This document shows positions 47,489-63,580 of a stretch of DNA of 64,000 nt, in pieces. The stretch is from a virus. The stretch lies in IMG/VR virus record IMGVR_UViG_3300045988_141150. One strand, written 5' to 3'. Made by a program: the position numbers and the translations under genes. Under the pieces are notes generated by a model. That model saw only the letters and a list, made by a program, of their open reading frames with translations, was not told the origin of the DNA and did not search any database. How positions within the stretch are numbered: the first letter of the stretch is position 1; each line of letters opens with the position of its first letter.

Positions 47489-48544
47489 TTAAGATTTTTT
47501 GGCCTTAGAATTTCGACAACTTTTACAAATACTATAAAAGCCATCTTTACTTGTTTTATTTTTACTAAAATATTTATTGTGAGCTAATTTTATTTTGCCA
47601 CAACGACTACATTTTTTATATTTACCTTTTTCAACATTTAAATAATAATTATCTAAGTATTCATCTTCCGCAGTCGAAGCAATTAATTTTGGAATTTTAT
47701 TACGCCATAAACTTGAAATATATTCAAGGCTGTGCTTAATACCAAATTCCATTTGTATTTTCTCTTGAATGTCAATATTTTGTAAACCATCAATTTTATA
47801 TTCAACGATTCTATCATAAAGAGGATAATTAGCTAAAGCTTTATCACAAAGTTTATCAAAATCCTCCATTAAATACCATAAATCTTTATCATATTCGCCC
47901 CAACTATCTTGCTTTAATCGGGAATAATTACATAAAATCGCAGAACATATCTCAGGTCTTAATAAACTAATTCCATCAGGAATGGGAAAACCATCATCAT
48001 CAAAAATAAATGTTTCATCATCTAATGGAATATAAGACTTTGATCTGGTTAATTTTGTAGGCACTATTGGACGACGATAAGCATTTTTTATAACATACTA
48101 ATCTTTACGCATTTCAATAAGAGCCTTTTTAATAACAAAAGCATCTTTACCTTCTGTTACTTTTAATTTAGCCTCCCAAACATTAATGGCTTCTCTTAAC
48201 TAATTTAAACTTGGTATCTCTTCTAAATCTTTTTTTGTAATTGTAATATGTGGTTGAAATATTGTATTTCTATTATCTGTAATTAAATTATAAATTCCAT
48301 CTTCGCCATTTTCGAGTTGGGAAACAAGACCTTCAAAAGAAGTCTCACGTTTATTAACTGTAGCCATACGATTATCAGTTAATAATTTTTTCTCCTTTTT
48401 TTCTTGTTTCTCCATACAAAGAACCAAATAGTCTGCTAAAATTTCTAAATACTTTTCAGGCGGATCTGGATTATCAGCCAAAATTTGTTCGACTAATTGA
48501 TTTCTTTCTTCTGGAGTTTGTAAAGAATAATCAAGTTTTATCAT
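47489..48544 (-). CDS. first late-operon protein (351 aa if both TAG are read through; 114 aa if TAG terminates), C-terminal zinc ribbon
   Basis: ATG at 48544 with GGAGG RBS; TAG at codon 115 (48200) and a second TAG (48098); same frame continues into ORF 47489..48064; TAA stop. Confidence 0.5.
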
Positions 48545-48568: not shown

Positions 48569-48597
48569 ATTATACTCGAAAAAATTTTTTTTGTCAA
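48569..48597 (-). promoter_or_regulatory. sigma70/sigmaA consensus promoter for the late operon
   Basis: minus-strand TTGACA (48592-97), 17-nt spacer, TATAAT (48569-74), about 20 nt upstream of the RBS and ATG of gene 47489..48544. Confidence 0.55.
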
Positions 48598-50079: not shown

Positions 50080-50445
50080 ATGAAGAACATTTCCAAAATC
50101 ATCACCATGGCCATTGCTATCATTCTCTCCGTGTCTTTCTTTGGCCCGTTCCACGACCACACAACCGCGGAAGCCTGTGAGGAAGCGCCCCAGTCCTACG
50201 ACCTCTCGGTCATTGAGAATTGGTGCGGTTCAGGCACGGAGCGCGGAAGTATCCGTTTCGTCGGCGCAGAGGTCTATGAGCGCGAGGGCGATACACTGAC
50301 GCTCATTGATGAGCAAGGCAATCTGTGGGACGTGGAAGCACTCAACATTGATGACAACGACTTCTTGCTCTTGTGGATTAACGACAATGACACTGACACT
50401 GTGGAAGATGATACAATCATTAAGGTATGGAGAGAGGCTTACTAA
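50080..50445 (+). CDS. secreted or membrane-anchored protein with an N-terminal signal peptide (121 aa)
   Basis: RBS AAGAGG; hydrophobic N-terminus MKNISKIITMAIAIILSVSFF; acidic. Confidence 0.55.
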   Translation: MKNISKIITMAIAIILSVSFFGPFHDHTTAEACEEAPQSYDLSVIENWCGSGTERGSIRFVGAEVYEREGDTLTLIDEQGNLWDVEALNIDDNDFLLLWINDNDTDTVEDDTIIKVWREAY

Positions 50446-50476
50446 GTCTCTCTCTTTCTTGCGGATCGGCGAAGAT

Positions 50477-50494
50477 TGTTAAAAAATTAACAAG
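50477..50494. promoter_or_regulatory. perfect 18-bp palindrome TTGTTAAAAAATTAACAA (candidate operator or activator site)
   Basis: centre lies 29.5 bp upstream of the -35 box at 50515; identical copy at 50899 with identical spacing. Confidence 0.45.
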
Positions 50495-50514
50495 CAAAGA
50501 AGAGTAAAAAACTC

Positions 50515-50543
50515 TTGACAAATGCGCAATGATGTGCTACAAT
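50515..50543 (+). promoter_or_regulatory. consensus promoter
   Basis: TTGACA-17-TACAAT (tgtgcTACAAT). Confidence 0.55.
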
Positions 50544-50573
50544 GTAGATACAATAAGAAAGGGGAATACTCAG

Positions 50574-50864
50574 ATGACTAATAAGAATTTTTATAATGCT
50601 CTCAAAGCAGAAAAGGAACGGTTGATGAACGAAAGCAAGCAGGCATCCCGCGACTGCCAGATTAAGCATGGTGAGATGTCAAAGGCATGGAACATTGTCA
50701 ATGCCCTTGAAAGCTTGGGTAAGTTTGGCACGCAGGAACTCAGCAACGCGTATGATAACTATGAGGAAGCCAGCTACGCAAGTATGTTAGCAGACAACCA
50801 CTTCGATGACATTGATGAAGCCATTGATAAGATAAATGGATTGATGGGTCTTTACGAAGAATAA
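50574..50864 (+). CDS. small acidic protein (96 aa)
   Basis: ATG with AAAGGGG RBS; TAA stop. Confidence 0.55.
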   Translation: MTNKNFYNALKAEKERLMNESKQASRDCQIKHGEMSKAWNIVNALESLGKFGTQELSNAYDNYEEASYASMLADNHFDDIDEAIDKINGLMGLYEE

Positions 50865-50888
50865 GGGAGCAGTAATGCTCCCTTTCTA
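50865..50888 (+). terminator. rho-independent terminator
   Basis: gggagc-agtaat-gctccc then ttt. Confidence 0.5.
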
Positions 50889-50898
50889 ACGGCGTAGA

Positions 50899-50916
50899 TT
50901 GTTAAAAAATTAACAA
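50899..50916. promoter_or_regulatory. second copy of the palindrome TTGTTAAAAAATTAACAA
   Basis: identical sequence; centre 29.5 bp upstream of the -35 box at 50937. Confidence 0.45.
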
Positions 50917-50936: not shown

Positions 50937-50970
50937 TTGACAAATCAGTTAGAATGTGGTATTCTATAAT
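50937..50970 (+). promoter_or_regulatory. consensus promoter
   Basis: TTGACA-17-TATTCT overlapping TATAAT. Confidence 0.5.
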
Positions 50971-50994: not shown

Positions 50995-51204
50995 ATGATT
51001 TATGGCATTGTTTATTATACTAAGGGCGGTCAGGGCTATCTCTTCCAGCAAGCGTTCGAAGAACAGCGCGCTATGGAGATTGCAGGTAAGATGAACGACT
51101 TACTCGCGACAGGTGCTACGATGTATAATGATAAGTCCTATGGCAAGCTCGACTTGCGGAACGTTGAGTATTTCACAGTTGAACCCAGTAGCGAAATGTA
51201 TTAA
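50995..51204 (+). CDS. small protein (69 aa)
   Basis: RBS AAAGGGGAAAG; TAA stop. Confidence 0.5.
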   Translation: MIYGIVYYTKGGQGYLFQQAFEEQRAMEIAGKMNDLLATGATMYNDKSYGKLDLRNVEYFTVEPSSEMY

Positions 51205-51540: not shown

Positions 51541-51574
51541 TTGACAAATCCAACAGCCGGTGCTATACTATAAT
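51541..51574 (+). promoter_or_regulatory. consensus promoter driving a transcript of about 140 nt with no convincing ORF
   Basis: TTGACA-17-TATACT/TATAAT; transcript begins tTGTCAAGAGGGG. Confidence 0.5.
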
Positions 51575-51859: not shown

Positions 51860-51888
51860 TTGACAAACCCCTTAGAGTGTGATACAAT
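51860..51888 (+). promoter_or_regulatory. consensus promoter driving the tRNA-like RNA
   Basis: cCTCTTGACAaacccc-17-TACAAT. Confidence 0.5.
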
Positions 51889-51900
51889 AAGGGTACAGAT

Positions 51901-52012
51901 GGCGGTGAGGTAGAACGGTTCTACTTCCACAAAGATGGCTGAGATACAAAAGTGTCGCTCACTTGGAAACGTTCGCTATTGGAAAATGTGGGTTCAACTC
52001 CCACCACCGCCT
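51901..52012 (+). ncRNA. tRNA-like small RNA (about 112 nt): 7-bp acceptor stem, D-arm with GG, canonical TTCAACT T-arm, but an aberrant 34-nt anticodon region
   Basis: ggcggtg pairs with caccgcc; D-arm gtag-aacggtt-ctac; T-arm gtggg-ttcaact-cccac; own promoter; no ORF; stem ttcca/tggaa (25-29 with 64-68) encloses 34 nt; no CTA triplet in the loop. Confidence 0.35.
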
Positions 52013-52032
52013 CAAAATTTTTTGAAAAAACA

Positions 52033-53004: not shown

Positions 53005-53250
53005 ATTAAAAATCTCCCCAAAAATGGGGAGATTTTTTTGTACATTTTATCTATTGACAATCCCAAAACTTCATGGTATAATCGGCCGGCGCGCGAACGG
53101 ACCTGGCGCGCCGAGTTTTTGTCAATAGGCGGGTTGCACAAATTTTTGGGGCAAATCTTTGTGCATAATGTCAATAGACAGAATCCCGAATTGGTGCTAT
53201 ACTATAATCACAGTAAGGGAAGGAAAACCTACCAAACCGGAAAGGGATAA
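53005..53250 (+). repeat. early intergenic cassette, short type: terminator, promoter P1, GC hairpin plus T-tract, GCACAAA box, promoter P2
   Basis: terminator 53009-53040; P1 TTGACA 53045 with TATAAT 53068; hairpin cggcgcgc..gcgcgccg 53078-53104 then agttttt; P2 TAGACA-17-TATACT 53166-53194. Confidence 0.6.
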
Positions 53251-53254
53251 CAAC

Positions 53255-53563
53255 ATGATTAACATTCGTTCTATTCTCAAACTCGCTGAAAATGACGGTC
53301 TGACCCTCAAACATGGCAAGAAGGTCAATTACAAGTCCGGCTGGCAGGTCGCCACTAATGGCGTTGAATGTAAGACCGCCCGCGAAGCCATTAACGCGGT
53401 CAAGGAATATGGCGGCAACTGCGGCGTGTGGTTTGCGAACGGCATTTATTATGTTGACAAGTCCAAGAGGGTGCAGACCAAGAAGCAGGCGCTTGAAATC
53501 GGCAAGGCGTGCAACCAAATCAGTGTATATGGCTGGGCGCGCGGCAATCTGGCTTACTGCTAA
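53255..53563 (+). CDS. hypothetical protein (102 aa)
   Basis: true start at the internal ATG 53255 with AAAGGGA RBS; TAA stop. Confidence 0.5.
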   Translation: MINIRSILKLAENDGLTLKHGKKVNYKSGWQVATNGVECKTAREAINAVKEYGGNCGVWFANGIYYVDKSKRVQTKKQALEIGKACNQISVYGWARGNLAYC

Positions 53564-54729: not shown

Positions 54730-54798
54730 ATGTCAAGAGGAAGTGGTAAGCCTCTTGAAGTAGTGAACAAATTTCTCATACTATGGTTTGCGCGGTAG
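54730..54798 (+). CDS. leaderless micro-ORF MSRGSGKPLEVVNKFLILWFAR (22 aa) that ends in TAG
   Basis: ATG immediately after the -10 box; one of only two early-region reading frames terminated by TAG. Confidence 0.25.
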   Translation: MSRGSGKPLEVVNKFLILWFAR

Positions 54799-54830
54799 CC
54801 GATAATTACCGCGCCCTTTCTATTTCATTT

Positions 54831-54848
54831 TTGTTAAAATTTTAACAA
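54831..54848. promoter_or_regulatory. third palindrome TTGTTAAAATTTTAACAA (variant of the 50477 and 50899 site)
   Basis: perfect 18-bp palindrome; same half-site TTGTTAAAA. Confidence 0.35.
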
Positions 54849-54893
54849 TGATTGTTCGGCCGGGCGCGCACGGACCACGCGCCCGGAATTTCA

Positions 54894-57867: not shown

Positions 57868-58320
57868 ATGAAAGCTACTGGTATCGTTCGCAGAATTGAT
57901 GACCTTGGACGTGTGGTCATTCCGAAAGAGATTCGCCGGACTTTGAAGATCCGCGAGGGCGACCCGCTTGAAATCTTCCTTGGAGAGGACAACTGCGTTT
58001 GCTTCAAGAGGTATTCAGTGCTTGGTTCGTTGACCGAAGAGGCTCTGCGAACCGCTATTACAATGGCGTCAAATTCCGGTCTACGCCCTATCGCAATTTA
58101 TGATACTACTGTAAAACTGCGGGGCATGGAAAACTTTTCGGCCTATGTCCCGACCCAGTGGGAATTTGAAAGAAAGCCATTTGTTTTCAATAATACCTAT
58201 GGCGTTTATCCGGTTTGCGCGGACGGCGACCTTGTGGGTTATGCGGTTTGCGACCAGCAAGACATGGGGTGTGAAATGGACATGATTGTTCGCTACCTCA
58301 GCATTGTGTCTGAACGTTAA
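57868..58320 (+). CDS. abrB-like: AbrB/SpoVT-family swapped-hairpin transcriptional regulator (150 aa)
   Basis: N-terminus MKATGIVRRIDDLGRVVIPKEIRRTLKIREGDPLEIF closely matches the AbrB/SpoVT N-domain (MKSTGIVRKVDELGRVVIPIELRRTLGI...); about 100-aa C-terminal extension. Confidence 0.7.
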   Translation: MKATGIVRRIDDLGRVVIPKEIRRTLKIREGDPLEIFLGEDNCVCFKRYSVLGSLTEEALRTAITMASNSGLRPIAIYDTTVKLRGMENFSAYVPTQWEFERKPFVFNNTYGVYPVCADGDLVGYAVCDQQDMGCEMDMIVRYLSIVSER

Positions 58321-60851: not shown

Positions 60852-61226
60852 ATGGCTACTTCTACTACTAAGAAGCTCACTAAGCGTGACCGTTTCGAGG
60901 CTCTGCTCAAAATGTCCGAGGTTCAGGCAAATCCTGATATGGTGGCGTTCATCGAGCATGAGATTGAACTGCTCGCCAAGAAGAACGCGGGCGACAAGAA
61001 GCCCACGGCTAAGCAGATGGAGAACGACGCCGTGAAGCAGGTCATTCTGGACGAGATGATCGCAAACCCTGACAAGCTCTACACTGTAACCGAACTCATC
61101 AAAGGCGTTCCCGAACTTGCGGAGTATTCCAATCAGCGCGTTTCCGCTCTTCTGCGCCAGATGATTGACGCCAACGCGGTTGTCAAGACGGTTGACAAGC
61201 GCAAGTCCTACTTCTCCCTCGCGTGA
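60852..61226 (+). CDS. hypothetical protein, paralogue A (124 aa)
   Basis: RBS AAAGGAATTGATACT; about 70% identical to the protein at 63203..63580. Confidence 0.55.
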   Translation: MATSTTKKLTKRDRFEALLKMSEVQANPDMVAFIEHEIELLAKKNAGDKKPTAKQMENDAVKQVILDEMIANPDKLYTVTELIKGVPELAEYSNQRVSALLRQMIDANAVVKTVDKRKSYFSLA

Positions 61227-63202: not shown

Positions 63203-63580
63203 ATGTCTACTTCTACTACTAAGAAGCTCACTAAGCGCGACCGTTTCGAGGCTCTGCTCAAGATGTCCGAGGTTCAGGCTGACCCCGCCATGGTTGAGTT
63301 TATCAATCACGAGATTGACCTGCTGGCTCGCAAGAATGCCGGTGATAAGAAGCCGACCGCGAATCAGATTGCCAACGATGGTTACAAGGACATTATCTTT
63401 GCCGAGCTGTCCGCCAATCCTGACAAGCTCTACACTGTGACCGAACTCATTAAGACTGTGGACGGTTTGGGTGACCTCTCCAATCAGCGCGTCTCCGCTC
63501 TTCTGCGTCAGATGATTGAAGCGAACGGTGTCGAGAAGATTGTCGACAAGCGCAAGTCCTATTTCCGTCTCGCCCACTGA
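63203..63580 (+). CDS. hypothetical protein, paralogue B (125 aa)
   Basis: internal ATG 63203 with the same RBS context as 60852; about 70% identical to paralogue A. Confidence 0.55.
   Translation: MSTSTTKKLTKRDRFEALLKMSEVQADPAMVEFINHEIDLLARKNAGDKKPTANQIANDGYKDIIFAELSANPDKLYTVTELIKTVDGLGDLSNQRVSALLRQMIEANGVEKIVDKRKSYFRLAH

Follow-up and report, generated by a model that had tools for sequence, protein, structure and literature searches.

What reads the short inverted repeats that stand in front of two early promoters of a large phage of the human gut? The repeats lie in IMG/VR virus record IMGVR_UViG_3300045988_141150, of which we analysed a stretch of 64,000 nucleotides (nt; hereafter the window, to which all positions refer); it matches, at 100% identity, a section of a human-gut metagenome contig of 190,948 bp. 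Three 18-bp copies are present: boxes 1 and 2, which are identical and stand upstream of the promoters P1 and P2, and box 3, a variant further along. All three have the form of the operator of the bacterial repressor Rex, and Rex of the host is the candidate reader weighed here. The elements concerned are the following:

about 50430-50459, plus strand: hairpin 5′ of box 1, the counterpart of the gene 1 terminator
50467-50475, plus strand: 5′ flank of box 1, cggcgaaga, GC-rich and conserved
50476-50493, no strand assigned: box 1, TTGTTAAAAAATTAACAA, a Rex-type operator match at 14 of 14 specified positions, centred about −65.5 from the inferred P1 start
50494-50514, plus strand: spacer from box 1 to the −35 element, 21 nt, A-rich and UP-element-like; in relatives its sequence varies and its length is 21-23 nt
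50515-50543, plus strand: promoter P1, TTGACA, 17 nt, TGcTACAAT
50574-50864, plus strand: gene 1, 96 amino acids, the first gene driven by a box-bearing promoter
50863-50888, plus strand: intrinsic terminator of gene 1, aagggagcagtaatgctccctt and a T tract, 10 nt 5′ of box 2
50890-50898, plus strand: 5′ flank of box 2, cggcgtaga, conserved
50899-50916, no strand assigned: box 2, TTGTTAAAAAATTAACAA, centred about −64.5 from the inferred P2 start
50937-50965, plus strand: promoter P2, TTGACA, 17 nt, TGgTATTCT, 20 nt 3′ of box 2
50995-51204, plus strand: gene 2, 69 amino acids, driven by P2
54831-54848, no strand assigned: box 3, TTGTTAAAATTTTAACAA, a perfect palindrome, 16 nt past the plus-strand terminator at 54790-54814

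Boxes 1 and 2 each consist of two 7-bp arms, TTGTTAA and TTAACAA, around AAAA (reverse complement TTGTTAATTTTTTAACAA). An initial annotation of this DNA had described a perfect 18-bp palindrome beginning at 50477; the first copy in fact begins at 50476, and only the copy at 54831, which the annotation had rightly listed as a variant, is perfectly palindromic. The conserved cggcg(a/t)aga that it had seen 5′ of both identical copies is there, as are the strong TTGACA-17-TGnTAnnnT promoters 3′ of them, with −35 elements at 50515 and 50937. The fixed distance of 29.5 bp between box centre and −35 element that it reported holds only approximately: 21 nt separate box 1 from its −35 element and 20 nt box 2, with a range of 20-23 nt among relatives. 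The box centres of −65.5 and −64.5 assume a start site about 7 nt past the −10 element. Each box follows a terminator, at 10-16 nt for boxes 1 and 2, and among the strong promoter matches none runs divergently across box 1 or box 2.

Box 3 is placed differently. No plus-strand promoter follows it at a spacing like that of P1 or P2; it occupies about +40 to +57 of a minus-strand transcript (promoter 54922-54894), just beyond a GC-rich hairpin at 54860-54886. This is also the place that is taken by the plus-strand partner promoter in the other face-to-face promoter units of the window, which are described at the end.

The boxes are not a product of base composition. TTGTTAAAAAATTAACAA occurs exactly twice in the window and TTGTTAAAATTTTAACAA at 54831-54848; searched with the consensus TTGTTAANNNNTTAACAA, the 64 kb give 3 exact matches against 0.00 expected (100 shuffles) and no further site with up to two mismatches, in agreement with the three sites counted in the initial annotation. 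That annotation had named frequency in an AT-rich late region as what would undo the motif. The label was wrong, for the boxes lie in the early region (49.9-64 kb), which has 43% GC and about 37 near-consensus sigma-A-type promoters, each serving one or two small plus-strand genes; the motif is absent from the part of the window with 29% GC (1-48.5 kb, minus-strand structural genes), so it is not frequent by composition.

Rex, a repressor of Gram-positive bacteria, is a winged-helix dimer that binds TTGT(G/T)AA-N4-TT(C/A)ACAA at a low NADH/NAD+ ratio. Boxes 1-3 all match the form TTGT(T/G)AA-N4-TT(A/C)ACAA at 14 of 14 specified positions. The Clostridiaceae Rex box consensus, TTGTTAANNNNTTAACAA, derives from Ravcheev et al. 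2012, as quoted in passages of PMC5367854, PMC9600882 and PMC4600107; the same consensus was recovered for Clostridium thermocellum Rex by DNA affinity purification sequencing and confirmed by electrophoretic mobility shift assay (PMC8457756). Rex senses NADH/NAD+ and releases its DNA when NADH rises (PMC8457756). Read as letters, the motif is the Rex box consensus of Clostridia and not an anonymous motif: it shares with the Clostridiaceae Rex operator (ROP) the 18-bp inverted repeat, the 7-bp arms, the A/T-rich centre and the choice of T or G at position 5.

The way in which the boxes vary also follows the degeneracy of Rex sites: the arms are fixed, the central N4 is free, and position 5 changes from T to G only. 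Locus L007 (L-numbers label loci, which for the relatives are mostly IMG/VR contigs) mixes TTGTTAA arms with TTGTGAA/TTCACAA arms, the canonical Rex form. When the looser, CRP-like frame TTGTKA-N6-TMACAA was applied, 119 distinct phage sites were obtained, of which 90% kept A7/T12, with a centre that was 94% A/T. The flanks of the phage sites (n = 92) prefer G at −2 and A at −1 and are GC-rich further out.

The exact 18-mer was looked up among 185,579 bacterial and archaeal genomes, a scan that informs on the use of the 18-mer in bacteria and gives no host identity. It occurs at at least 120 loci, a mixture of chance matches and real Rex sites. Among the Bacillota matches listed, it stands directly 5′ of genes for an AdhE-like aldehyde dehydrogenase, a thiolase, NuoE-like 2Fe-2S (hydrogenase) subunits and a CCG-domain protein, with one site per 8 kb, often adjoining the −10 element or past it. 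Genes of these kinds are classic members of the Rex regulon, and the Rex operator known from Bacillota likewise stands 5′ of adhE, thl and hydrogenase genes.

Are the boxes maintained? The 20-mer GATTGTTAAAAAATTAACAA is present on 41 IMG/VR contigs, mostly 97-197 kb long, and in close relatives there are two matching sites 424-425 bp apart; a Megablast comparison of GenBank phages with the early and late parts of the window, L007 and L040 yielded no relatives of use. For a test of conservation, relatives were found through the gene 1 protein, a 121-amino-acid protein encoded upstream and exact-protein look-ups, and not through the motif. Identity of gene 1 among them is no higher than 69-80%. 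Across 11 distinct P1 regions, none of the 18 columns of box 1 varies, against 33 of 111 outside it (Fisher p = 0.003), and within the conserved flank the AGA adjoining box 1 is invariant and ggc(g/a)n is variable. At P2, one of 18 columns of box 2 and 16 of 106 outside it vary, which is not significant; the sole variant is TTAACGA, in L184 and L253. The gap between box and −35 element is 21-23 nt at P1 and 20-21 nt at P2. At box 3 the flanks change and the box is kept, the only arm change being T to G at position 5 (TTGTGAA). L191-L193 keep the upstream gene at 80% identity but have lost or never had the entire box-P1-gene 1 unit, and therefore the boxes travel with the cassette that they precede.

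The position relative to promoters recurs outside these orthologous regions as well. A sample of about 360 kb including the window holds 103 distinct contexts: for 50 of the boxes a promoter lies no further than 120 bp away, and in 31 of these 50 cases the −35 element is 20-23 nt from the box. Another promoter family among the relatives has its box 20-21 nt 5′ of TTGACA. Adjacent boxes are mostly 32-36 bp apart, and this spacing together with the preferred gap to the −35 element places boxes and −35 elements on a lattice of about 33 bp. A 20-23 nt gap is strongly preferred, yet orthologous promoters differ by 1-3 bp. Box-rich loci are L007, with 18 boxes in 12.4 kb, L040 with 10, and L004 and L010 with 9 each.

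Other palindromes accompany the Rex-type boxes in the relatives. GAAC-N4-GTTC is found 16 times in L007, 13 times in L010 and 5 times in L004, and AATTTTCWGAAAATT 10 times in L030 and 11 times in L040; these are equal to the Firmicutes operator consensus of LexA and of CodY, respectively. They sit about 27-37 bp from Rex-type boxes, 5′ of promoters. Altogether 296 kb of relatives hold 118 Rex-type, 41 LexA-type and 22 CodY-type boxes (expected for the latter two, 2.8 and 0.02), and there are no LexA-like or CodY-like boxes in the 64-kb window. The pairing suggests that these phages habitually carry operators recognised by global regulators of the host.

The host is probably a member of the Clostridia, because the major-capsid-like protein is near that of the TAG-recoded gut phage Phass-1 (50% identity, compared with about 40% to large Enterococcus phages) and the promoters and ribosome-binding sites of the window are of the Firmicutes type. 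The authors of Phass-1 predicted its host to be Clostridia/Eubacteriales.

Searches for a Rex homologue in the window, the complete Phass-1, the 41 motif loci and 57 further loci, about 1.5 Mb in all, found none; this comprised 530 kb of motif loci searched by profile with TAG read as Gln and a further 1 Mb or so of related early regions. A Rex-profile scan of IMG/VR by two peptide patterns, which has limited sensitivity, returned four small unrelated contigs, none of them with the motif. Two GenBank phage entries matched by Bacillus subtilis Rex in tblastn (L042 and L043) were dropped: they look bacterial, with long operons, and carry neither boxes nor phage-type promoters.

With a conserved, operator-like anatomy about 65 bp 5′ of two predicted start sites, the boxes bear out the proposal of the initial annotation that they would be operators of a dimeric regulator. 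Whether this regulator is the Rex of the host is in our judgement an even question: the boxes would then be Rex-type operators that couple two early promoters and a short antisense-side transcript to NADH/NAD+. It also speaks for host Rex as the binder that the phage's own candidate regulators, set out below, do not track the boxes.

We propose that, as the phage is without a Rex of its own, the Rex of a Clostridia-type host would occupy the perfect-consensus sites upon entry of the DNA. At P1 and P2 the dimer would sit at about −65, some three helical turns 5′ of the centre of the −35 element, abutting the A-rich UP-like tract. There it could modulate the interaction of the C-terminal domain of the RNA polymerase alpha subunit (alpha-CTD) with the UP element, most likely damping the two consensus promoters. 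At box 3 it would lie within the short minus-strand transcript as a roadblock-type operator, and the position of this box, unlike that of the other two, fits the site-past-promoter arrangement by which Rex blocks. When NADH accumulates, in a metabolically active or an NAD+-depleted cell, Rex would leave and genes 1 and 2 would be fully expressed. As to the sign of the effect, damping relieved by NADH is the version we favour for P1 and P2, by analogy with Rex elsewhere and with p4 of phage phi29, which represses strong promoters from an upstream position. The initial annotation had taken the position near −65 to fit an activator or a factor binding the UP element; a strictly stereospecific activator is weakened because the gap to the −35 element varies over 20-23 nt.

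Several points weigh against host Rex. Unlike known Rex operators, the boxes lie on a virulent-type phage genome and not in a metabolic regulon, precede tiny proteins, and form phased arrays in relatives. Boxes 1 and 2 are centred at about −65, neither overlapping the core promoter nor 3′ of it as a repressor site usually would be, and activation by Rex has never been shown (PMC8457756). The GA/GC-rich flank preference of the phage sites is an extra feature without equivalent in the bacterial matches. Genes 1 and 2 gave nothing in family and fold searches that points to NAD(H)-linked fermentation or respiration: neither has a match in PHROGs or Pfam, and gene 1, whose homologues are confined to this phage lineage, is confidently predicted as a two-helix antiparallel hairpin for which the fold search matches only coiled coils and is uninformative. 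The proposal would also require a Rex in the host, which is only probably one of the Clostridia, and the remaining 120 kb or so of the phage genome may encode a divergent binder. Finally, in L201, L212-216, L223, L225 and L234 the palindrome lies between a Rep-like gene and four or five iterons, and a phage protein that reads TTGTTAA probably exists in this clade, because these relatives show the layout of a Rep autoregulatory operator.

It is accordingly possible, if distinctly less probable, that the boxes serve a DNA-binding protein of the phage itself as operators and that the match to the Rex consensus is convergence or deliberate mimicry. Candidates would be Rep-like or Crp-like winged-helix proteins in the rest of the genome and three genes of the window:

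57868-58320, plus strand: AbrB/MazE-like protein, 150 amino acids, with an N-terminal SpoVT/AbrB (MazE antitoxin-like) domain (Pfam 5e-10) and a PHROG match annotated 'antitoxin'
60852-61226 and 63203-63580, plus strand: winged-helix paralogues, 124 and 125 amino acids, 77% identical to each other, recognition helix SNQRVSALLRQM

The Rep-like locus is one argument for such a protein. Initiators of the iteron type with an autoregulatory inverted-repeat operator are known, for example pPS10 RepA and F RepE, and the palindrome at the 5′ end of the Rep-like gene in L201, L212 and their relatives looks like this layout. The adjoining iterons, TGTTAAAAnTTAGACAyCTATAT, carry the half-site TGTTAAA of the palindrome, whose arms are fixed and whose centre is variable. 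The product of the Rep-like gene (Rep A) has two winged helices and a helix-turn-helix (HTH), SRQTVSTKFKNL, that resembles the Crp recognition helix (Pfam HTH_Crp_2 at 2.5e-6). The flank preference, which extends past the Rex core, would suit a phage protein as well, and so would the arrays of the box-rich relatives, in which 9-18 boxes in 12 kb follow the lattice of about 33 bp at many early promoters and resemble a phage-wide shut-off circuit.

The likeness to an iteron-type operator is confined to those relatives. Neither iterons nor homologues of Rep A or Rep B were found in the window plus L044, where the boxes precede unrelated small genes, and in close relatives the boxes are retained beside another Rep and other iterons: L199, L206 and L207 encode Rep B with GGTCAAAATTTTCT iterons, lack Rep A and yet keep all three boxes, while the contig of the window has GGAAC-N5-GTTCC repeats at the Rep locus, no Rep A and three boxes. 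A Crp-like HTH was not found among the early open reading frames of the window. An independent match to a host consensus at 14 positions, including the T/G degeneracy, is moreover unlikely by chance.

The Rep locus is itself variable. An origin-like hypervariable cassette, in which a Rep-like gene (TAG-recoded in some relatives) stands beside lineage-specific repeats, lies past the early region at 15800-16050 of L044 (equivalent to about 67.2-67.4 kb of the window), 14270-14450 of L201 and about 14950-15150 of L206.

The window's own candidates were examined by their distribution. The winged-helix proteins form a conserved family with an almost invariant recognition helix and two or three copies per phage, a point in favour of a phage-encoded binder, but the fold is generic MarR/ArsR-like, and at 23 of the 57 loci with the family no box lies within 10 kb in either direction. 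In these proteins a helical N-terminal part precedes the winged helix at the C-terminus, and the family is found on phage-like metagenome contigs only. The AbrB/MazE-like protein, put forward as a binder in the initial annotation, fares no better: it is kept in relatives with or without boxes and shows no association with them across 98 loci. In one relative, 110853, the homologous early region of about 25 kb has no box, yet the two winged-helix genes (93% identity) and the AbrB-like gene (83% identity) are still there.

A different role for host Rex is improbable, namely that the boxes are decoys, selected not for control of P1 and P2 but for titrating Rex as the phage replicates. The LexA-like and CodY-like boxes of relatives would titrate too, and the fermentation, SOS and nutrient regulons of the host would be derepressed to the benefit of the phage. 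Sites of perfect consensus, better than most host sites, would serve this purpose, as would the dense arrays of all three box types in relatives; the bacterial loci have one site each, and positions of about −65 or −98 are in any case ill-suited to direct repression. Three boxes would nevertheless make a weak sponge in the phage of the window, and the preferred distance of promoter-linked boxes from the −35 element points to a promoter-linked role. The boxes are also gained and lost together with the cassette that they precede, and the literature search turned up no precedent for such a sponge.

Very unlikely, lastly, is a structural role with no trans-acting partner, in which a bent or curved A-tract or an UP extension is kept by descent in a duplicated promoter cassette: a 27-bp block, cggcgNagaTTGTTAAAAAATTAACAA, is common to P1 and P2 and close relatives show good conservation throughout the intergenic regions, but the sequences from box to −35 element, though both A-rich, differ completely between the two promoters, the arms stay fixed while N4 varies and recur with other centres and flanks in many unrelated contexts (the 103 counted above), and only two of the window's consensus promoters bear a box, the other 35 or so working without one.

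A wider form of the host-Rex proposal, which we put forward tentatively and regard as rather doubtful, is that this clade of large gut phages with TAG-recoded genes wires operators of Rex (sensing NADH/NAD+) and, in relatives, of LexA (DNA damage) and CodY (nutrients) into the phased early-promoter lattice of about 33 bp, so that host physiology would select which take-over genes are fired. Such a lattice could include sensing of the NAD+ collapse caused by an NAD-depleting defence, and the three boxes of the window would be the minimal form of the circuit.

Phages that read the state of their host through the operator of a host global repressor have been described: phage genes under LexA-box control are found, for example, in GIL01 and CTXphi. 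The relatives of the phage in the window, with many GAAC-N4-GTTC boxes beside Rex-type boxes, resemble these LexA-controlled phages. The window differs from them in that it has no LexA box, the signal would be NADH/NAD+ and not DNA damage, and the phage is large and apparently lytic. For the position of boxes 1 and 2 the parallels are regulators that bind upstream of a strong sigma-A promoter, among them p4 of phi29 at A2c and A3, and CAP at class I sites. There, too, a dimer site lies 60-80 bp 5′ of a consensus promoter, by the place of alpha-CTD and about three turns from the −35 element. In contrast to those sites, the boxes have no sequence relation to them, and their spacing varies by up to 3 bp, which makes strict dependence on the face of the helix doubtful. 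No p4-like protein was identified for this phage. A full-text literature search, the coverage of which is incomplete, brought up no paper that describes Rex boxes in a phage genome.

If host Rex binds, a lytic-type phage of anaerobic gut Firmicutes would read NADH/NAD+ through a borrowed operator. This would give a handle on how gut phages match infection to the metabolic state of the host, on why relatives crowd their early regions with Rex-, LexA- and CodY-type boxes, and on whether phages sense NAD+-depleting immunity. Genes for NAD salvage are found in relatives such as Phass-1. The boxes would furthermore be a source of ready-made parts for redox-responsive promoters in Clostridia. Should the binder turn out to be a phage protein, it would be a new regulator of phage origin in which the specificity of a global repressor of the host has been copied. 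In Phass-1 (OQ749652) the salvage route is encoded at 98196-101298 and consists of nicotinamide phosphoribosyltransferase, ribose-phosphate pyrophosphokinase and nicotinamidase; near the left end of the same genome, at 893-910, there is one Rex-type box followed by a LexA-like box.

The genome that surrounds the boxes has a sharp boundary of composition and coding, with a TAG-recoded late part at 29% GC and an early part at 43% GC that is readable in the standard code. In the late part, whose structural genes read through only if TAG is a sense codon, long open reading frames (at least 150 amino acids) cover 47 kb with TAG as a sense codon and 18.8 kb under the standard code, and the longest has 2760 amino acids. 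On the late side of the boundary, a gene at 47489-48544 (minus strand) has a sigma-factor-like PHROG match (phrog_5767), an N-terminal part interrupted by TAG and a consensus minus-strand promoter at 48597. This gene diverges from the early region and probably constitutes the switch to middle or late transcription.

The early promoters, TTGACA-17-TGnTATAAT with A-rich upstream tracts, extend over 14 kb of the window at about one per small gene, and the region runs to about 66 kb in L044. Several terminator hairpins hold the next −35 element in their loop, for example at 53561, 55250, 57789, 58319, 59506 and 62143. The promoters at 51541, 51727, 54697 and 62862 lead into non-coding-looking transcripts that begin with GTCAAGAGG. 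Another promoter, at 51860, precedes a tRNA-like element at 51901-52015 (plus strand), which has an acceptor stem GGCGGUG/CACCGCC, a T-arm GUGGGUUCAACUCCCAC and a 76-nt insert in place of the D and anticodon arms; it scores 37 bits against the Rfam tRNA model, its ends match transfer-messenger RNA at 16.8 bits, and ARAGORN gave no result. The face-to-face promoter units form a further repeated element, in which consensus promoters about 95 bp apart surround a GC-rich hairpin such as ggccggccgtttccgcgcgctacggccgg. They are found at 53054(+), 54922(−), 56583(+), 58619(+)/58712(−), 60264(+)/60359(−) and 62580(+)/62675(−), and the paired short transcripts of such a unit would be fully complementary.

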